DNA of 64,000 nt from an uncultured Gammaproteobacteria bacterium (lineage in GTDB: Bacteria; Patescibacteriota; Microgenomatia; Levybacterales; GWA1-39-11), in assembly GCA_964394645.1 (NCBI GenBank), contig CAYMYC010000003.1:18315-82314 (forward strand). The letters are read 5' to 3'. Positions 50,238 to 60,210 of the stretch are shown here, piece after piece. Numbering within the stretch: the stretch's first letter is position 1; every line of letters starts with the position of its first letter. Below the pieces are notes generated by a model. The model ran no database searches and was not told where the DNA came from. It saw nothing but the letters and a program-made list of their open reading frames with translations. Position numbers and translations under genes: made by a program.

Positions 50238-50475
50238 AGCAAATTATCATTGTATTCTGAGATAGAGTATTTTGTGTCGAGTTTCTAAGAAAAACCTTGA
50301 ACTATTTATACCACTTCGAGAATCTATCAACAAATACTGGGATAGAAGCAAATACGATTACGCCGCATTTACCCAAATAGTTCTGGAAGCTAATAACCAA
50401 TTTCAGTATAATGGAATATACCGATATTAAGGGCTATATCGAAAATGCGACACATGGCGCAGTTTTATAAAAACT

Positions 50476-50739
50476 ATGAGTACCATTAACTATTTTACAG
50501 GTAAAACAAAGTCAGATACACCGAGCGCACCCGCTAAAAGCAATCCTATTAAACAAATTGTCGACGTAATGAAGAAGGTAGACGTTAAGTCGCCAGACGC
50601 CGCAAAGAATGAAAAAAGTATAGTCGATAGCAAGGGTAAGCGCATAAACCTAAATGACGAAGAAGTGAGATTCGATTATTTCAAAGGTCAATTTGTGAAG
50701 AAAAACGCTGAAAATAATAAAAACCAGAATAAAAAATAA
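50476..50739 (+). CDS. Small Lys-rich hypothetical protein (87 aa), first gene of the element
   Basis: An ORF with GC-richer codon usage than the host genes. Confidence 0.4.
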   Translation: MSTINYFTGKTKSDTPSAPAKSNPIKQIVDVMKKVDVKSPDAAKNEKSIVDSKGKRINLNDEEVRFDYFKGQFVKKNAENNKNQNKK

Positions 50740-50765
50740 CTGGCATATTATTAAGTCAGTCTATC

Positions 50766-51386
50766 TTGAACTATATGTATGCTGTTACCGATAACGAATT
50801 TACAGAAAAACATGCAACCGACGCTATTTACACAAAAGTAATCCGTGAGCTTCGAACTAACCCCAACGGCGCACAAAAACAGGATAGCGGTAGAAAAAGG
50901 GAACTAACCCGCGAAATACTACGCACCTATTTGTTCTATCTTTCCATGACTGGTGAGTATGAATTTTCGGCTGAAAATGCAGGTTTACCAGAAAAACGAA
51001 GACAAAAATACATGAAGGAATCCGAAACATTTCGCGGGGTGTCTAGCCTGGCAAAAAATAATGTTTCTTTACGCGCTAGAATGTCCGTAGCGCAGTCGAT
51101 AATGGGTAGGAAGCCTAGTTACTACAAAATGACTAACCCAGCCACTAATCAACCTGTATATATCGAATTAAAAGAAATCCTACCGAACGTAAACGCCGCT
51201 ATGTGGTGGCTGGAAAAAGTCGACAAAATCGGTACGGGTGAAGAAGACGAAGACCCATACAAAAACCCAGGATTAGGCGCACCCAGAAACGCAGAAGAAG
51301 CGGCTTTACTAGAAGGCCTACTAAATAAACATTACGATTATGTTAAGGAAAAAGAATTAAAAGCTAAACAGGCACAGCAAATCTAA
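50766..51386 (+). CDS. Hypothetical protein (206 aa) of the element
   Basis: An ORF with no motif recognised. Confidence 0.5.
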   Translation: MNYMYAVTDNEFTEKHATDAIYTKVIRELRTNPNGAQKQDSGRKRELTREILRTYLFYLSMTGEYEFSAENAGLPEKRRQKYMKESETFRGVSSLAKNNVSLRARMSVAQSIMGRKPSYYKMTNPATNQPVYIELKEILPNVNAAMWWLEKVDKIGTGEEDEDPYKNPGLGAPRNAEEAALLEGLLNKHYDYVKEKELKAKQAQQI

Positions 51387-51387
51387 T

Positions 51388-51828
51388 TTGCACCGTACCA
51401 TGAATATCGACAATTCCGACACTATAAAAAGGCATAAAGGCGATACCAAACGCCCGCTACTTAAAAAACGGTTCTTAGAGCTATTACTAGAAGAAAAGGT
51501 GTTAGGTAATGTTTCAGTAGCCGCCAAAATTCTAGGAATAAATCGCGATACCGTTTACAACTGGCGAAAAAAAGACGTAAAGTTTTCGAAAGCGTGGGAA
51601 GCGCAGATAGAACTAGCGAATGGTGTTTTAGCCGACGAAGCGGAAAACGCCTTACTTAATGGAATTAGGGCTGGTAATCCTTCACTTATTATCTTTACAC
51701 TTAAAAACAGGCGACCTGAAAAATGGAACGACCGCTATGCGAATAGACTTAAAGAAAGTCGAACCGTAGAGCATGAAGTATCGCCAGAATTTAGACAGTT
51801 TTTACAAGGTTTGCGGACTACAAAATAA
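51388..51828 (+). CDS. Phage terminase small-subunit-like HTH protein
   Basis: GNVSVAAKILGINRDTVYNWRKKDVKFSKAWEAQIELANGVLADEAE...GNPSLIIFTLKNRRPEKWNDR matches the HTH plus C-terminal ...F.LKn..PekW.dr pattern common in phage TerS/HTH_23-type small terminase proteins. Confidence 0.5.
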   Translation: MHRTMNIDNSDTIKRHKGDTKRPLLKKRFLELLLEEKVLGNVSVAAKILGINRDTVYNWRKKDVKFSKAWEAQIELANGVLADEAENALLNGIRAGNPSLIIFTLKNRRPEKWNDRYANRLKESRTVEHEVSPEFRQFLQGLRTTK

Positions 51829-51890
51829 TATTCATTTAAGGTGCGACACCTAGCGCACTTTCTGATAAAATACAGAGTAATCATATAACT

Positions 51891-52166
51891 ATGACAAACG
51901 ATTCTGACATAATAAAAAGGCTCGAAAAAATCGAACAACGTAACAAAAAGGTCGAGTTAGATAAAGCGTGGGAAGGAAGTTACGTAAGGCGCGTTTTAAT
52001 TGTAATTTTTACTTACCTTTCTATCGGAATCTACATGTGGGCCATCGGCGTAGAGAATCCATTGCTTAATGCTGTTATTCCTTCACTTGGATTTACTTTA
52101 TCTACTCTAACGCTACCTTACTTTAAAAATTTATGGATTAAATGGAGGCAAAATTATGAAAGATAA
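51891..52166 (+). CDS. Small two-TM membrane protein (91 aa)
   Basis: An ORF with hydrophobic segments [20 protein letters not shown] and [14 protein letters not shown]. Confidence 0.35.
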
Positions 52167-52539
52167 AAAACTAACAGTTCAAATAAATAAACCTGCTAGC
52201 GAAGTTTTTGCATTCGTTATTAACCCCGAAAATACACCCAAATGGATAGATTCAATTACAGTCGAGCAAACTAACGAATGGCCCGTTAAAGTAGGAACAA
52301 TTTATAAAAACAAAGGTGCAAGTGATGTTTGGACGGAATATACCTTAACAGAGTTCAGGCCGAACGAAATGTTCGTTATGCGTAAGAACGACAAAAACTA
52401 CCATGTTAAATATACATTAACACCGACAGGCAAGGATTCTTCTGAACTGGAATATCACGAATGGGTGGAACACGGCGAACTAGAAGACCCTTTTACCCCA
52501 GAGATATTACAAAAATTAAAAAAAGTTTTAGAAAAATAG
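52156..52539 (+). CDS. SRPBCC (START/Bet v1/polyketide-cyclase-like) small protein
   Basis: A ~127-aa protein whose pattern fits the SRPBCC/AHSA1-like fold ([23 protein letters not shown]...). Confidence 0.45.
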
Positions 52540-52540
52540 C

Positions 52541-52876
52541 ATGGAAGGAAAAGTAGTAAAAATCGTAGTATTCGTTCCAAAATCCCACACTGACATTGTT
52601 CGTCAAGCTATGGGCGACGCTGGCGCGGGTAAAATCGGCAATTATAGTCATTGTTCGTATTCGGTCGACGGCATAGGAAGATACAAGCCGTTAGAAGGCG
52701 CTAATCCAACCATAGGTGAAGTCGGAAAATTTGAAGAAGTCGAAGAAGAACGGGTCGAATGTGTTTGCGAAAGAAAAGTAGCAAAAGAAGTTATAAAAGC
52801 TATAAGAAAAGTTCACCCCTATGAAGAAGTAGCTTTTGACATTTACCCATTAATTTCAGAAAAAGATTTAGACTAA
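52541..52876 (+). CDS. Small GlnB/PII-like-fold protein (CutA / Nif3-insert-like)
   Basis: A 111-aa protein. The C-terminal motif VHPYEEVAFDIYPLI resembles the HPYE(V/E)P motif of CutA and the Nif3-family PII-like insert. Confidence 0.4.
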   Translation: MEGKVVKIVVFVPKSHTDIVRQAMGDAGAGKIGNYSHCSYSVDGIGRYKPLEGANPTIGEVGKFEEVEEERVECVCERKVAKEVIKAIRKVHPYEEVAFDIYPLISEKDLD

Positions 52877-53623
52877 TTCTCTATCACTTTTCCCTAAATT
52901 ACACTCGAAACAAAGCGTTTGTAAGTTTGATAATTCACTTTTTCCACCCTTAGAGAAAGGAACTATGTGGTCTATGTGTAGTTTAGTTCCTAAATCAGTA
53001 GCGGGACTTTTTCCGCAGAAAACACATCGAAAATTATCCCTACTTAGCACTTTAAGTCGCAAACTAAGATTTATTGTTCTTGTTTTAGATAGTTCGGGTT
53101 CGATAATTTCTTTTGTGGAAAGTGATTTAATGCGAGGAAATTGAATACTTTCTTTGCTTTTATCAGATACTTCGTCGTCAACAGTTATTGTACCGCCTGA
53201 TTTATATTCGATAAATTTTAAGCATGCGTTCGTCCAGCCTTCAAAATGGCGATACAGTGTATCGTAACTAATTTTAGGTTTCATGCGTACCCATTCATTT
53301 CGTGAAGGTCTATGACCTAATGCTACCCAAATTCGTTCCATTTCGTCGAACATTTCTTTTACCGAATAGGAACTTCTTCTAGTCGTTAGCTTAAATTCTA
53401 TATTTTGCTTTTTAAAATGTTCTTCTAAATACTTCAAAGCATTTTCCCATGAACCGAATTCTCTATTTACGGTAAAGTAACTAATACTCGCAAACTTATT
53501 AAAATCGCTTTGACTAAAATCCGAGTAATTAAAATGTTTAGCAACTTTTTCAAGTTCTTCAATAATCCGCTCACGCGGAATCTTACTTATTTGCCGCCTA
53601 TTAAAATCAAATTTAAAATCCAT
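52868..53623 (-). CDS. HNH endonuclease with two N-terminal HEARO (homing-endonuclease-associated) repeats
   Basis: The C-terminal HNH motif is CVFCGKSPATDLGTKLHIDHIVPFSKGGKSELSNLQTLCFECN. The N-terminal repeats end ...FGSWENAL and ...FEGWTNAC, typical of HEARO. Confidence 0.8.
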   Translation of the reverse strand: MDFKFDFNRRQISKIPRERIIEELEKVAKHFNYSDFSQSDFNKFASISYFTVNREFGSWENALKYLEEHFKKQNIEFKLTTRRSSYSVKEMFDEMERIWVALGHRPSRNEWVRMKPKISYDTLYRHFEGWTNACLKFIEYKSGGTITVDDEVSDKSKESIQFPRIKSLSTKEIIEPELSKTRTINLSLRLKVLSRDNFRCVFCGKSPATDLGTKLHIDHIVPFSKGGKSELSNLQTLCFECNLGKSDRELV

Positions 53624-53629
53624 ACTTGC

Positions 53630-53812
53630 TTATATTTCTTTTGAATCTATAAATTTCTGTAATTCTTCCAGCTTATACCTTCTATCCTTCCGTTTTCCGA
53701 TACGTACGGCTTGCAAGCGTCCCTGATTATCCCAACGGCGTAGAGTTTCGGGGTTAATTCCCAACATTTCGGCGGCTTCACGAATCTTTAATAGCTTATG
53801 TTTAGTATTCAT
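53630..53812 (-). CDS. Excisionase/MerR-like HTH_17 DNA-binding protein
   Basis: The 60-aa sequence LLKIREAAEMLGINPETLRRWDNQGRLQAVRIGKRKDRRY is a canonical excisionase-family HTH. It sits adjacent to the recombinase on the divergent strand. Confidence 0.65.
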   Translation of the reverse strand: MNTKHKLLKIREAAEMLGINPETLRRWDNQGRLQAVRIGKRKDRRYKLEELQKFIDSKEI

Positions 53813-53845
53813 AACTTCTACTTAATTATACTATAATACGATAGT

Positions 53846-55450
53846 ATGTACGATAATGATAATCTGGTCGATATTAAGAAGCTACGCTTCGTTTTATATG
53901 CCCGTAAGTCCACAGACGACGCTAAGCGGCAAATTCGCTCTATTCCAGACCAGATAGACGAATGCCGCGACCTTGCGGCAAGGCTAGGTATAAAAATCGT
54001 CGATACCTTCCGAGAAGAAAAATCCGCCAAACGGCCAGGTATCAGACCAGTTTTCAGCCAGTTAATTGAAGACATAAAAAGTGGTAAATATGACGCTATA
54101 CTTGCCTGGAATCCTGATAGATTAGCCCGAAACATGCTGGAAGCGGGCATGTTAATAGATTTGGCCGATAACGGCATTATTAAAGATTTTAAGTTTGTAA
54201 CCCATATCTATTCGCCAGACGCTAATGGAAAAATGCTTCTAGGTATGGCTTTCGTGCTATCAAAACAATATAGCGATAAGCTCTCACAGGACGTTACGCG
54301 CGGTGTTAGGAAGAACTTAGAACAAGGCAAAACGCCAACTTATAAACACGGTTATATTCGTGATAAGCGGGGCATATATCAGCCAGACGAAGAAAACGAC
54401 AGATTTGCCTTAATACAAAGTGCCTGGTACATGCGAGCCGACGGGAAGTCGCTAAAAGAAATCAACGCCTATTTGAACCTTAAAGGGTATTTCCGACTTA
54501 TCAAAGAAACGAATCGGAAACAGTACATGACCCAACAAAAACTTAGCAATATCTTTAAGGATTCGTTTTACTACGGTGCGCTGGTACAAGCGGGACAAAC
54601 GGTTTATTTACCAGACGTGTACGACTTCGAAGCCATGATAGACCGAGATATGTACGACAAAGTACAAAGTCTAAGTGTTGATAGGTTCGTTCCCTATAAA
54701 AGCAAATTACAAACATTTTACCCACTTAAACAAATGGTGAAATGCGCCTACTGCCAGGGAAATATGGTCGTAGCCCCTTCTAAAAGTGAAAGCGAAGGGC
54801 GTTTCTTATATTTTAGGTGTGATAACAAAGTATGTATTCGAAATTCGGCTGAAAATCGAGCAAAAAAGTGGAAAAAAGACCCGACATATATTAAGGCTTC
54901 GGTTCGGTCGATAGTTATATTCGATTTTGTCTATGAGCTATTAAAAGACGGACTTAACTTCACTGAAAAAGAATATTTGGAATATAAAGATAGTTTGAAA
55001 AGTTTGGGCGACGACGAACGGGAAAAGGTTCGTAGTGAAATAGAACACTTAGAAGCCTTAAAGCGTGGTTATACAAAGGAAGTGAAACGCATAGGACTAG
55101 CATTAGGAAAACTCACGGACAATAAGACAGCTTATGACATAAACGTAGAGGAACTGGGAAAGCAAAAAGCTAATCAAAGCCAAACAGAGGCCGCTATTAT
55201 AAAACTTAGAGAAAATCTTACTGACGAAGAAGAAGACGAATTGTCATTAGAAGAATTCTTGAACTTGTCAAAAAATGCCGCTATGACGGTCAAAGCGGGC
55301 GACGCGATAGCCAAAGATATGATTTGTCGGTTATTATTCTTGAACTTCCATGTAGAGAATGAAAAAGTGGCGTCATATCGGCTAAAAGAACCATTTGACA
55401 CCCTGCTTAAAAGCCGTTCTATCCAAAATAGTCGGGGATGGCAGATTTGA
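53846..55450 (+). CDS. Large serine recombinase (phage-integrase-type resolvase/recombinase)
   Basis: The resolvase N-terminal catalytic domain is VLYARKSTDD...IRSIPDQ with a nucleophile Ser, and AILAWNPDRLARN. A recombinase domain and a zinc ribbon (CAYCQGNMV...FRCDNKVC) follow, then a coiled-coil C-terminus. Length 534 aa. The last 19 nt overlap tRNA-Pro. Confidence 0.9.
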   Translation: MYDNDNLVDIKKLRFVLYARKSTDDAKRQIRSIPDQIDECRDLAARLGIKIVDTFREEKSAKRPGIRPVFSQLIEDIKSGKYDAILAWNPDRLARNMLEAGMLIDLADNGIIKDFKFVTHIYSPDANGKMLLGMAFVLSKQYSDKLSQDVTRGVRKNLEQGKTPTYKHGYIRDKRGIYQPDEENDRFALIQSAWYMRADGKSLKEINAYLNLKGYFRLIKETNRKQYMTQQKLSNIFKDSFYYGALVQAGQTVYLPDVYDFEAMIDRDMYDKVQSLSVDRFVPYKSKLQTFYPLKQMVKCAYCQGNMVVAPSKSESEGRFLYFRCDNKVCIRNSAENRAKKWKKDPTYIKASVRSIVIFDFVYELLKDGLNFTEKEYLEYKDSLKSLGDDEREKVRSEIEHLEALKRGYTKEVKRIGLALGKLTDNKTAYDINVEELGKQKANQSQTEAAIIKLRENLTDEEEDELSLEEFLNLSKNAAMTVKAGDAIAKDMICRLLFLNFHVENEKVASYRLKEPFDTLLKSRSIQNSRGWQI

Positions 55451-55503
55451 ACTGCCGACCTCACGGTCCCGAACCGTGCGCGCTACCACTGCGCCAATCC
55501 CCG
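55432..55503 (-). tRNA. tRNA-Pro (anticodon CGG)
   Basis: The reverse complement folds as CGGGGAT-TG-GCGC-AGTGGTA-GCGC-G-CACGG-TTCGGGA-CCGTG-AGGTC-GGCAG-TTCAAAT-CTGCC-ATCCCCG-A. It is nearly identical in architecture to E. coli proK. Confidence 0.85.
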
Positions 55504-55603
55504 ATAAAGTAGTTTTAGTTGGTTTCTGCTTCTTAATTTCCAAATTATACTCTAATAATGGTAGAATACGAAGAGATTAAGATCATTTTCATGGTTATAT
55601 TTG

Positions 55604-55624
55604 ACTCCGTAGCTCAATGGATGA
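55604..55624 (+). pseudogene. 5' tRNA-Arg-like fragment (acceptor 5' strand plus D-arm 5' half; copy A)
   Basis: gactccgtagctcaatggat resembles the first 20 nt of the intact tRNA at 55657 (gacctcgtagctcaatggat), with 2 differences in the acceptor strand. Confidence 0.45.
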
Positions 55625-55656
55625 AGGTTTACAAGGCAAACCTTGAGACTTGTGCG

Positions 55657-55729
55657 ACCTCGTAGCTCAATGGATTGAGCAGTCCCGTCCTAAGGGAAAG
55701 ATTGCGAGTTCGACTCTCGCCGAGGTCGC
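55657..55729 (+). tRNA. tRNA-Arg-like (anticodon CCU), embedded in an extended 17-bp inverted repeat
   Basis: GACCTCG-TA-GCTC-AATGGATT-GAGC-A-GTCCC-GTCCTAA-GGGAA-AGATT-GCGAG-TTCGACT-CTCGC-CGAGGTC-G. The acceptor, D and T stems are perfect. The D-loop AATGGAT is as in E. coli tRNA-Arg(CCU). The anticodon stem has one G:A mismatch (27:43) and an unusual G32. The flanks AGACTTGTGC / GCACAAGTCT extend the acceptor helix to 17 bp. Confidence 0.6.
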
Positions 55730-55755
55730 ACAAGTCTAGGATCAGCCCGTCCTGC

Positions 55756-55776: not shown

Positions 55777-55781
55777 GATTG

Positions 55782-55816
55782 GGAAAGATTGCGAGTTCGA
55801 CTCTCGCCGGGGTCGC
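55782..55816 (+). pseudogene. 3' tRNA-Arg-like fragment (anticodon-stem 3' strand through discriminator; copy C)
   Basis: gggaaagattgcgagttcgactctcgccggggtcg matches the 3' 35 nt of the intact tRNA except for one base in the acceptor (cgAggtc versus cgGggtc). Its acceptor strand is complementary, with one G:U, to fragment A (GACTCCG) and not to the intact copy. Confidence 0.5.
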
Positions 55817-55876
55817 AAGGAGTACCTCCATAAAAGATCATTGACTTAATGCTTGGATTTAAATATTATTATTTCC

Positions 55877-57987: not shown

Positions 57988-60210
57988 ATGAACGTTTCAG
58001 AACCTCATTTACCGGAGAAATTGGTTCATCTTATGGTTCGGAATCCAAAAGATGATGAAACTCCGATTCAGGCAGCAACACAGATTTTTTCAGGGATTCT
58101 ACCTCATTCATTTATTCCCCTTTGGAAACGTATATATATTCATCCATCAGTTTTTGCATTTGAATTGTTTCTTATAAATCAGTTGGCATCTTTTTATGTT
58201 ACCGCACCCAAGGAGAAGGAAACAGTTGTTTCAAGTCTTATTTCATCCTCTTTTCCCAAATCAAACATCACTAAAACTACTGACCCCATGGTGGAGGTGT
58301 TAAAGGCAAAGCACATTGTATATGGACAAATGATTTTAGATTCATATTCTTATCTTCCAATCAAAACATATGCTGATTTTGAAGACGTAGATCCATTGTC
58401 TGCGCTTTTAGGGTTTCTGGGTAAGCAAGATGAGAACACGCAGATGGCTGTTCAAATATTAGTAACTCCTGCACTTTTTGATTGGCAGCATAAGGCAGTT
58501 GATATGGCAGGACATATGGTTTTAGATGCTCCAGGAGCACCAAATGATCCGAGCGAGAAGGCTCGTTATTCACAGAATCCCCAGAAACTACTCATGATGC
58601 AGAAGGCATCATTTGTGGGTGGTAAAACAGTGGTACGTTTAGTTGTGGGTAGTGATAGTGCTGAGAAGGCAAAGCATGAGCTGCATAATTTAGCGGGTAT
58701 TTTTGGTACCTTTTCTCAGGGAGAGGGGAATCAATTTGTTCTAAAACGACCAAAAATTAGAAAAAAGGTATTACTTGTCAGAATAAAAGATAGGAAAACT
58801 GGAATTTTTGAACGTCGGAATCAAGTGTTAAATGCTCAGGAATTAGCTACTTTATGGCATCCACCGGGAATTCTCCTTTCAGGTATACGGAACGTGTCAT
58901 GGGGGAAGACTCTTCTTGGTGAGCCTCCAGAGAATCTACCGGTAATAACCGGTATGGCTGATGACGAAAAGCAAAAAGTAAATTTTTTTGCAAAAACAGA
59001 ATATAAAAACAAAGAAACAATATTTGGCATAAAAGATGCAGATAGACGAAAACACATTTATGCAATTGGTAAAACTGGGGCAGGGAAATCTACTCTGATT
59101 GCAAACATGGCAATTGATGATATTCGGAAGGGAAGAGGAATTGGAATTATAGATCCTCATGGAGACTTATCGGAAACAATTTTAGACTATATACCAAAAA
59201 GAAGACTAAATGATGTTGTTTATCTTGAGCCTTTTGATAAAGAGCGACCCTTCTCACTGAATGTGTTAGAAGTACATAACAAGCAGCACAAAGATTTGGT
59301 TGCATCAGGAATAGTTTCTATTTTTCATAAGATTTACGGGGATAGTTGGGGTCCTAGGCTAGAGTATATATTGCGGAATGTTATTTTAACGCTTTTGGAT
59401 ATAGAGGAGGGGACTCTTATAGACGCGTTGAGGTTATTATCCGACGATTCATTTAGGGCAAGTGTCGTACCTCGTTTAAATGATCCTGTATTAAGAAATT
59501 TTTGGACAGGTGAATTTGATAGGATGTCTGATAAATTGAGGGCAGAAGCCGTTTCTCCCATCCAAAATAAAATTGGTCAATTTGTCTCAAGCAGCATGAT
59601 AAGAAATATAATAGGTAATAAAACATCTAGCATTAATCTACAAGAAATAATGGATGAGGGGAAAATATTAATTCTTAATCTATCACAGGGGAAATTAGGA
59701 GAAGACAACGCGGCGTTATTGGGTGCTATGATAATTACACAAATTCAACTTGCTGCTATGAATAGGTCTTATGTTAAAGAAGAAGACAGACGGGACTTTT
59801 TCCTTTATGTAGACGAGTTTCAGAATTTTGCAACAGAATCTTTTGCAAAGATTTTATCTGAGGCAAGAAAATATAGACTATCATTAACGCTTGCAAATCA
59901 ATATGGTGATCAACTGGAAGAGGAAATACAGAGGGCAATTTTTGGTAACGCAGGGAGCATTATATCATTTGTTGTAGGAGCAAGAGATGCGTATATGTTA
60001 ACGCGTGAATTTGCCGAAGTCTATTCTGAAAATGACTTGGTTTCACTTGGTAAGTTTGAAACGGTAGTAAAACTCTCAATTGACGGAATGACCTCAGGTC
60101 CATTTCCTGCCATTACATTACCGTTACCAAATCTTAAAAACGATAACAGGGAGGATATCATAAGAAACAGCCGCGAGCGTTATGGTCGGAAGCCTGTAAA
60201 AAACTTCTAG
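57988..60210 (+). CDS. TraD/TraG/VirD4-like coupling-protein-family ATPase (DUF87/TraG-D_C type)
   Basis: Walker A IGKTGAGKSTLIANMAIDD, the IIDPHGDL motif, Walker B FLYVDEFQNF, and a C-terminal ...LTLANQYGDQLEEEIQRAIFGNAGSIISF typical of the TraG/TraD C-terminal domain. There is a ~330-aa N-terminal domain of unknown function. Confidence 0.7.
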   Translation: MNVSEPHLPEKLVHLMVRNPKDDETPIQAATQIFSGILPHSFIPLWKRIYIHPSVFAFELFLINQLASFYVTAPKEKETVVSSLISSSFPKSNITKTTDPMVEVLKAKHIVYGQMILDSYSYLPIKTYADFEDVDPLSALLGFLGKQDENTQMAVQILVTPALFDWQHKAVDMAGHMVLDAPGAPNDPSEKARYSQNPQKLLMMQKASFVGGKTVVRLVVGSDSAEKAKHELHNLAGIFGTFSQGEGNQFVLKRPKIRKKVLLVRIKDRKTGIFERRNQVLNAQELATLWHPPGILLSGIRNVSWGKTLLGEPPENLPVITGMADDEKQKVNFFAKTEYKNKETIFGIKDADRRKHIYAIGKTGAGKSTLIANMAIDDIRKGRGIGIIDPHGDLSETILDYIPKRRLNDVVYLEPFDKERPFSLNVLEVHNKQHKDLVASGIVSIFHKIYGDSWGPRLEYILRNVILTLLDIEEGTLIDALRLLSDDSFRASVVPRLNDPVLRNFWTGEFDRMSDKLRAEAVSPIQNKIGQFVSSSMIRNIIGNKTSSINLQEIMDEGKILILNLSQGKLGEDNAALLGAMIITQIQLAAMNRSYVKEEDRRDFFLYVDEFQNFATESFAKILSEARKYRLSLTLANQYGDQLEEEIQRAIFGNAGSIISFVVGARDAYMLTREFAEVYSENDLVSLGKFETVVKLSIDGMTSGPFPAITLPLPNLKNDNREDIIRNSRERYGRKPVKNF

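Follow-up and report, generated by a model that had tools for sequence, protein, structure and literature searches.

A site-specific mobile element lies beside a proline tRNA gene in a 64,000-nucleotide stretch of contig CAYMYC010000003.1 (the window, to whose numbering all positions below refer), assembled from an uncultured bacterium that GTDB places in the Patescibacteriota. The element occupies positions 50280-55434 (5,155 bp), its terminal bases being fixed by an empty-site contig of the same species. That it is a true integrative element, placed at the end of tRNA-Pro by a large serine recombinase (LSR), follows from the empty site within the species, the exact junctions and the independent insertion of relatives at tRNA-Pro genes elsewhere. 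We consider it highly probable (about 0.85) that this is a site-specific integrative mini-element whose LSR recombines attB at tRNA-Pro with an attP that lies within the 3′ end of the LSR gene itself. The features that define the recombination sites are these:

50276-50279, plus strand: crossover core GTCG of attL at the left junction, placed by comparison with the empty-site contig; GTCG is also the left end of three close relatives (loci L011, L013 and L014) and of distant members.
50278-50430, plus strand: detached C-terminal tail of the recombinase, 50 codons and a stop, with no conserved start codon and in frame across the rebuilt attP.
53846-55450, plus strand: LSR in its integrated, truncated form, 534 aa, the last five codons and the stop being read from host tRNA-Pro DNA.
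55431-55434, plus strand: crossover core GTCG of attR, complementary to tRNA-Pro positions ~71-74.
55431-55503, minus strand: tRNA-Pro(CGG) by ARAGORN (Rfam, 55432-55503, 66.6 bits), the integration target and B′ arm of attB.

The empty site came from a different sample, in a 40-kb contig (L025, the reverse of L015) that was retrieved through exact matches to the flanking proteins, which are identical to those of the window. In this contig a 298-aa gene, tRNA-Pro, tRNA-Arg and a DsbA gene are contiguous, with a gap of 482 bp against 5,639 bp in the window. Base-by-base identity with the window extends on the left up to 50279 and begins again from 55431 rightward, and the 4-bp GTCG is the sole sequence common to both junctions. 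The attB rebuilt from attL and attR of the window is identical over 64 nt to the observed empty site, with the junction sequence ...GAGTATTTTGTGTCGGGGATGGCAG..., and the corresponding rebuilt attP junction is ...CCGTTCTATCCAAAATAGTCGAGTTTCTAAGAAAAACC.... An earlier reading of this DNA, made from the sequence alone (hereafter the sequence-only reading), had proposed such an empty-site comparison, which has now rebuilt attB exactly; the boundaries that it gave, 50300-55503, are corrected to 50280-55434, with tRNA-Pro outside.

The crossover core spans the end of the acceptor stem, the discriminator base and one further nucleotide of tRNA-Pro, and given this position the mature tRNA is untouched. 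The tRNA-Pro gene, which differs at one base from its counterpart in L025, is a target that stays intact after insertion and is no part of the element. The recombinase ORF (open reading frame) ends at 55450, and its final 19-20 nt overlap tRNA-Pro as delimited by ARAGORN and Rfam, in agreement with the 19-nt overlap described earlier. That overlap had been taken as the classic signature of an element at a tRNA gene. The location at tRNA-Pro stands, but the usual long tRNA-derived repeat is lacking: no long direct repeat of the tRNA-Pro 3′ end was found at the left boundary, only the 4-bp core. Whereas tyrosine integrases typically leave a duplicated tRNA fragment, a 4-bp core without a long repeat is as expected of a serine integrase.

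Profile searches identify the enzyme through Resolvase (PF00239, E=8e-24, profile positions 2-144 of 145), Recombinase (PF07508, E=2e-7, 31.5 bits against a cut-off of 21.1) and the 'integrase' family phrog_95 (1e-54), bearing out the large serine recombinase of the sequence-only reading, all nine of whose ORFs lie at the coordinates it had assigned. R20, K21 and S22 are invariant in 31 homologs together with other residues of the resolvase domain, and the cysteines C300, C303, C325 and C330 are likewise invariant among recombinase homologs; residues ~370-470 have, by eye, a helical and charged aspect. An IS607-type serine transposase was considered and rejected on the basis of NCBIfam IS607 scores of 20.8-29.3 bits against a cut-off of 110, the separate HTH (helix-turn-helix) gene, the large C-terminal domains and the specific target at a tRNA end. 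Sequence comparison with solved integrase structures gave alignments limited to the catalytic domain, so the tail is without structural placement.

The rebuilt junctions place attP inside the recombinase gene itself, and integration shifts a conserved 50-aa tail to the far end of the element. When the element ends are joined, the recombinase frame runs on for 50 codons to give an ORF of 579 aa, while the integrated copy consists of 529 native residues and five from the tRNA, making 534 aa. The last ~25 nt of element sequence within the recombinase gene form the P arm of attP, and the first ~25 nt of the detached tail region form the P′ arm. In the four close elements (that of the window and those of L011, L013 and L014) the tail has a constant length of 51 codons with its stop counted. 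Pairwise differences between these tails fall 31/26/110 on the three codon positions, with 110 of 167 at third positions; both other frames contain stops, and amino-acid identity is 76-86% in the tail against 74-84% in the recombinase body. These patterns point to a tail under purifying selection that evolves as coding sequence.

Homologous tails occur on two long recombinase homologs, P0009 (577 aa) and P0025 (569 aa), and the C-termini of other homologs resemble translated tRNA sequence. A profile built from the tails gave 16 matches at 15 loci; every one is on the strand of the LSR, which it either precedes or is fused with. The GT/CG junction is common to six distant tRNA-Pro members and was verified to be in phase in L036, L039 and L040, and a tRNA-Leu member with the core GTGC (L042) is also in phase. 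A phmmer search of the tail against 1.84 billion representative proteins returned only a spurious repeat protein (P0216), since clustering at 50% identity probably hides tail-bearing forms. Because the tail can be translated from the circle only and is nonetheless conserved, we infer that the element passes through the circular state regularly. Integration detaches no more than the last ~50 aa, leaving the catalytic and the recognised DNA-binding domains on one 534-aa polypeptide, and so the integrated LSR may remain active.

Related elements have been inserted independently at tRNA-Pro genes of other genomes. The recombinases of L011, L013 and L014 are 84, 78 and 74% identical to that of the window, lie in unrelated chromosomal neighbourhoods and end inside opposite-strand tRNA-Pro genes with the anticodons CGG, TGG and GGG, respectively; these elements measure ~3.7, 5.8 and 6.4 kb, and each has GTCG at both ends. 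An 87-aa gene, a 60-aa HTH gene and the recombinase are common to all four close elements, a 206-aa gene is present in three and a TerS-like (small-terminase-like) gene in two. The remaining genes differ, including those for the HNH, SRPBCC and P-II-like proteins of the window element.

A scan of one genome per species yielded at least 597 relatives, nearly all of them labelled Patescibacteria or Candidate Phyla Radiation (CPR), with lineages that include Daviesbacteria, Roizmanbacteria, Gottesmanbacteria, Saccharibacteria, Peregrinibacteria and Paceibacterota. At 38 of 46 full-length CPR loci the end of the recombinase gene has an opposite-strand tRNA starting no more than ~30 nt away; half of the eight loci lacking one are contig ends (4 of 8). 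In 36 of 39 cases the recombinase ORF stops within the tRNA, and the median length of the overlap is 22 nt. Targets are tRNA-Pro in the closest relatives, then tRNAs for Leu, Ser, Asp, Gln, Met, Val, Ile, Gly and His. Rebuilt distant members range from 2,952 to 6,870 bp, the smallest holding little beyond the LSR. Homolog clusters number more than 1,000 for the recombinase and 17 for the TerS-like protein; the 206-aa protein has 77. We found no open-access paper linking CPR bacteria with serine recombinases, and this is apparently a large and hitherto undescribed family in these bacteria.

The genes between the conserved ends of distant members are diverse. L035 (4518-5735) carries a reverse transcriptase (RVT_1) with a DUF5677 protein and L036 (3963-6115) a reverse transcriptase (RVT_1) with a SMODS nucleotidyltransferase, pairs that look like defence-related cargo; a DUF559 nuclease and a Prim-Pol replicase are found in others. 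The family therefore looks like a cargo shuttle. ORFs of 528 and 447 aa in relatives, tested as large terminase or replication protein, gave no family matches. A methyltransferase of the RrnaAD family (KsgA/Erm-like, E=3e-42) lies inside the element and directly upstream of the recombinase in L013 (9103-9990), L014 (9104-9991) and L033 (1-756); carried on a mobile element, an enzyme of this family could alter the methylation of ribosomes or the response to antibiotics.

At three loci, L033, L034 (7752-20359) and L060 (6592-12723), a single tRNA has two related elements arranged in tandem. Of their recombinases, the outer one abuts the tRNA and is truncated; the inner one keeps its full length and its tail in L033 and L034 and has a frameshift in L060. 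The L034 composite includes a Prim-Pol/AAA_25 replicase, the only occurrence of Prim-Pol. The inner junctions look like hybrid attP-like sites, and such a site would imply insertion into attR, an unusual reaction for serine integrases. Either a second insertion beside the tRNA or co-integration could have produced the arrays.

The other genes and motifs of the window element, which bear on its cargo and regulation, are the following:

50446-50461, no strand: imperfect palindrome TGCGACACATGGCGCA between the tail stop and the 87-aa gene, kept after the tail stop in L011, L013 and L014.
50476-50739, plus strand: 87-aa lysine-rich protein, the first gene of the element and the most widely kept accessory gene, with homologs in L011, L013, L014, L034 and L060.
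50766-51386, plus strand: 206-aa protein, strongly conserved.
51388-51828, plus strand: TerS-like 146-aa HTH protein, accessory, found among relatives in L011 only.
51842-51857, no strand: second palindrome copy, TGCGACACCTAGCGCA, upstream of the 91-aa gene and overlapping a -35-like hexamer.
51891-52166, plus strand: 91-aa protein with hydrophobic stretches, cargo, absent from relatives.
52156-52539, plus strand: 127-aa SRPBCC (Polyketide_cyc2) protein, cargo (PF10604, E=8e-12), absent from relatives.
52541-52876, plus strand: 111-aa protein with a weak P-II/CutA-like match, cargo (PF00543, E=0.0017, below cut-off).
52868-53623, minus strand: 251-aa HNH endonuclease (PF01844, 9e-13) with N-terminal HNH_repeat domains (PF18780, 2e-14).
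53630-53812, minus strand: 60-aa excisionase-family HTH, HTH_17/MerR-like (PF12728, 6e-13; TIGR01764 'excise', 33.2 bits against a cut-off of 28.8).

The 60-aa HTH protein, previously called an excisionase and now found to pass the curated TIGR01764 cut-off, is 64-88% identical to its counterparts in L011, L013 and L014 and is a candidate directionality factor or regulator. Its gene and that of the recombinase diverge across a 33-bp gap containing overlapping promoter-like hexamers. Promoter assignments are suggestive at most, because the promoter scan showed no enrichment over shuffled sequence. The palindrome pattern TGCGNCACNTNGCGCA occurs twice in the 64-kb window against an expectation of 0, both times within the element and ahead of gene blocks, which makes it a candidate operator. 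The 91-aa protein, with no family match in Pfam or PHROGs, is judged by eye to be a probable small membrane protein; the 87-aa protein has no family match in Pfam, PHROGs, PADLOC or NCBIfam.

The HNH gene lies directly downstream of the HTH_17 gene and is co-directional with it. It is present in the window element only, its slot holding unrelated genes in L011, L013 and L014, and it looks like cargo for these reasons. In PADLOC and NCBIfam the protein has nothing beyond generic HNH matches, and PADLOC recognised no defence system in the window cargo. HEARO is the name of an RNA motif; of an HNH protein with HEARO repeats, as previously described, the HNH domain is retained, while the repeats correspond to Pfam HNH_repeat, and Rfam detects two tRNAs only, with no HEARO RNA and no other known RNA in the element. 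The SRPBCC assignment likewise holds, while its P-II-like companion is left with the sub-threshold match listed above.

Composition sets the element apart in codon usage more than in GC content. The claim that it is visibly GC-richer was overstated: GC is 38.5% against 36.6% for the remainder of the window, a different 5.2-kb stretch within the window rises to 39.1%, and the gene-wise difference is not significant (p=0.14). The accompanying claim of different codons is sustained by GC at third codon positions (0.338 in the element against 0.280, p=0.02) and by a codon-usage distance of 0.41 against 0.19+/-0.035 (maximum 0.30) for host gene blocks. The tetranucleotide distance is 0.342 against 0.134+/-0.017 (maximum 0.192), and in codon usage and tetranucleotides alike the element is the most extreme among comparable blocks of the window.

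These features suggest a cycle in which the 3′ terminus of tRNA-Pro and its trailer would serve as attB, with crossover within GTCG. Integration leaves a chromosomal gene of 534 aa and, at the opposite end of the element, a 50-aa tail without a start codon of its own. Excision by recombination of attL with attR would be carried out by the LSR, probably aided by the 60-aa HTH protein or the 87-aa protein as directionality factor, and would release a 5.2-kb circle, making the LSR gene whole again at 579 aa. In a new cell this complete enzyme would then insert the circle into a tRNA-Pro, and the genes between the conserved ends (SRPBCC, P-II-like, small membrane protein, HNH and TerS-like) would travel as exchangeable cargo. 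A small integrative element that carries cargo is the description that suits it best.

Several observations weigh against this account of an LSR-driven, circulating element. The exact 579-aa protein is absent from a collection of 15 billion proteins, and the attP junction pattern had 0 matches in JGI metagenomes and IMG/VR, where the P′ arm alone gave three matches, all of attL type. The long homologs P0009 and P0025 sit in chromosomal tandem arrays and are no free circles. Within the recombinase, the zinc-ribbon domain Zn_ribbon_recom (PF13408, 1e-4) scores 22.9 bits, just under the Pfam cut-off of 25.3. Nearly all contigs of the species, from many samples, carry the element, and the site is empty in one among the ~10 distinct places listed, so the window copy may not have been active recently.

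This near-fixation, together with the missing circular junction in the protein collection, the JGI metagenomes and IMG/VR, would suit an immobile genomic island with a domesticated recombinase, in which the overlap of recombinase and tRNA is a relic. We think such an island improbable, because an empty site with identical flanking proteins exists in the same species, all ORFs including the in-frame tail are intact, and close relatives occupy other tRNA-Pro loci in other genomes. The element might instead be the decayed integrase-proximal end of a complete temperate CPR phage, serine integrases, excisionase-like HTH proteins, TerS-like proteins and HNH proteins all being common in phages. Such a prophage remnant is very improbable: the two ends are intact and sharply defined, attB as rebuilt matches the empty site, relatives elsewhere are likewise 3-7 kb long with the same two conserved ends, the tail encoded in the circle only is under purifying selection, and no phage structural gene was found in any family member examined.

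The sequence-only reading had favoured a phage satellite, on the logic of an integrase, an excisionase, a TerS-like protein and an HNH protein together. Infection by a helper phage would trigger excision, and the TerS-like protein would redirect the large terminase of the helper, with packaging probably as concatemers and the HNH protein possibly assisting. The TerS similarity is credible. The 146-aa protein matches phrog_309 (2.3e-13), phrog_4044 (1.9e-10) and four weaker TerS PHROGs, as well as HTH_29, and by profile the Protein Data Bank entry 2ao9 (E=2.7e-4); the top eight Foldseek hits are 2ao9 chains, which are not significant alone (E~0.3, TM 0.35-0.44). The 2AO9 protein has been treated as a putative nonameric small terminase (PMC7672466). 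On this evidence the 146-aa protein is credibly a remote small-terminase homolog encoded by an accessory gene. Like 2AO9, a prophage protein, and SF6/SPP1-type small terminases, it would have an N-terminal HTH followed by long helices; unlike them it has no adjacent large terminase, its AlphaFold2 model is all-helical with no beta-barrel, and its gene is not kept across the family.

Also in favour of a satellite are a size too small for a phage, the presence of integrase and excisionase-like genes, and the existence of minimalist satellites of similar size, the PICMIs (phage-inducible chromosomal minimalist islands; PMC10803314); some tRNA-site tycheposons are moreover described as resembling phage-inducible chromosomal islands (PICIs) and carrying terS (10.1101/2020.12.28.424599). 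Yet the TerS-like gene, with its few homolog clusters, is missing from two of the four close elements and from all distant ones, and members at the lower end of the size range carry little besides the LSR. No replication domain was detected in the nine proteins with Pfam, PHROGs, NCBIfam or PADLOC, whereas PICMIs need a replication gene. IMG/VR viral contigs hold no relatives of the TerS-like or the 206-aa protein, and matches of the former in phage genomes reach only E~3e-3. The HNH packaging endonuclease of cos phages is small, adjacent to the terminase genes and conserved with them. Such a role was rejected for the HNH protein of the element: it has 251 aa and HNH_repeat domains of homing-endonuclease type, none of the relatives encodes it, and its gene is separated by ~1 kb from that of the TerS-like protein, which is on the other strand. 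The satellite reading is thus weakly supported, just the remote TerS similarity arguing for it, and we regard it as unlikely. The four-gene combination is no design of the family; the TerS-like protein survives as a remote homolog, though not as a family-wide packaging gene, and the supposed packaging partner becomes variable-slot cargo. The absence of capsid and large-terminase genes had been recognised correctly, for none was found by profile searches, either of a capsid gene in the element or of a large terminase in the window element or L011.

Observations on the flanks of the insertion site stand apart from this question. Assemblies from different samples (L001, L002, L004 and L008-L010) often end 10-300 bp past the recombinase stop, in the tRNA-Pro/tRNA-Arg region, as would be expected if assembly graphs branched there, owing either to a mixture of occupied and empty sites or to the tRNA-Arg repeats. 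The tRNA-Arg(CCT) gene (55656-55729) is flanked by partial copies of itself (regions 55603-55622, 55646-55737 and 55781-55817). A copy of its 3′ half lies at 55781-55817 (37 nt, 97%) and one of its first 20 nt at 55603-55622, its acceptor stem is prolonged by a perfect 17-bp inverted repeat, and compensatory changes could allow the outer 5′ fragment to pair with the outer 3′ one. The arrangement is also found in the empty-site contig, so the copies are unrelated to the element; they may be the scar of older integrations or a disrupted second tRNA. An intron in tRNA-Arg was tried as their cause, and the intron mode of ARAGORN gave no explanation. To the right of the tRNAs, beside sortase and DsbA/DsbB genes, lies a gene for a 740-aa DUF8128/TrwB-like ATPase of coupling-protein type (57988-60210), and a 784-aa gene resembling it lies near the related element in L014. 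Strain-level variation is seen in a LytR_C-domain gene upstream of ndk, which encodes 210 aa in L015/L022/L023 (including the empty-site strain) and 169 aa in L016-L021.

Among known systems, the serine integrases of phages and of integrative and conjugative elements (phiC31, Bxb1, A118/LI, TP901-1, SPbeta SprA and phiRv1) share the architecture of Resolvase, Recombinase and four-cysteine zinc ribbon, and likewise have the integrase gene beside attP, a very short core without long repeats and a small accessory protein alongside. The directionality factor of phiRv1 is an excisionase-like HTH protein. The present system differs in that its target is a tRNA 3′ terminus, attP lies inside the integrase coding sequence so that integration alters the C-terminus, and the carrier is 3-7 kb long without phage or conjugation genes; only in the catalytic domain is it similar in sequence to integrases of solved structure. 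A survey of integrative elements describes serine integrases as 'not known for targeting tRNA genes', with 4.9% against 44.5% for tyrosine integrases (PMC7192596).

The gene-splitting arrangement recalls the archaeal 'suicidal' integrases of SSV type (SSV1, pTN3 and pT26-2), which are tyrosine recombinases (PF16795), are described as exclusively archaeal, and likewise have the site within the integrase gene, partition it on integration at tRNA targets and keep it intact only in the circle (PMC8371274). SSV-type genes are split into two inactive halves, whereas here only the last ~50 aa are detached, and the element is an analogue rather than a member of that class because it has a serine recombinase and Patescibacteria hosts. 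In function, the nearest analogy is with the tycheposons of Prochlorococcus, which are likewise small, site-specific, modular elements at tRNA genes with exchangeable cargo in streamlined genomes, a minority having a large serine recombinase; some variants carry terS or a capsid gene and are PICI-like (10.1101/2020.12.28.424599). Tycheposons differ in that 910 of 937 have tyrosine recombinases, many have replication proteins and the hosts are cyanobacteria rather than CPR (10.1101/2020.12.28.424599). PICMIs share a minimal gene content, with an integrase, an HTH regulator of AlpA type and a gene for defence or cargo; they differ in integrating next to fis, needing a replication protein, lacking terS and having a helper dependence shown experimentally (PMC10803314).

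These comparisons allow a broader proposal, which we advance tentatively and at well below even odds. The elements would form a CPR family of 3-7 kb cargo shuttles with tRNA-end-specific LSRs that split their own gene, and the exchange of C-termini, 579 aa in the circle and 534 aa in the chromosome, would act as a built-in switch of directionality or activity, with or without a directionality factor. This would be the first bacterial serine counterpart of the archaeal 'suicidal' tyrosine integrases, in a field where a review calls gene-splitting integrases exclusively archaeal and of tyrosine type (PMC8371274). If the switch operates in this way, the physical state of the element decides which reaction its recombinase performs, and a C-terminus set by integration state would be a testable and possibly new route to directionality control. 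Systematic targeting of tRNA genes by serine integrases also contradicts the usual expectation (PMC7192596). Serine integrases are prized for genome engineering since they need short att sites only, and a clade in which attB (the tRNA 3′ end) and attP (the integrase's own gene) can be read from genomes would supply many pairs of enzyme and site. The mobile elements of CPR/Patescibacteria are poorly known, and a family present in hundreds of species-representative genomes with defence-like cargo may be a major route of gene exchange among these genome-reduced bacteria.

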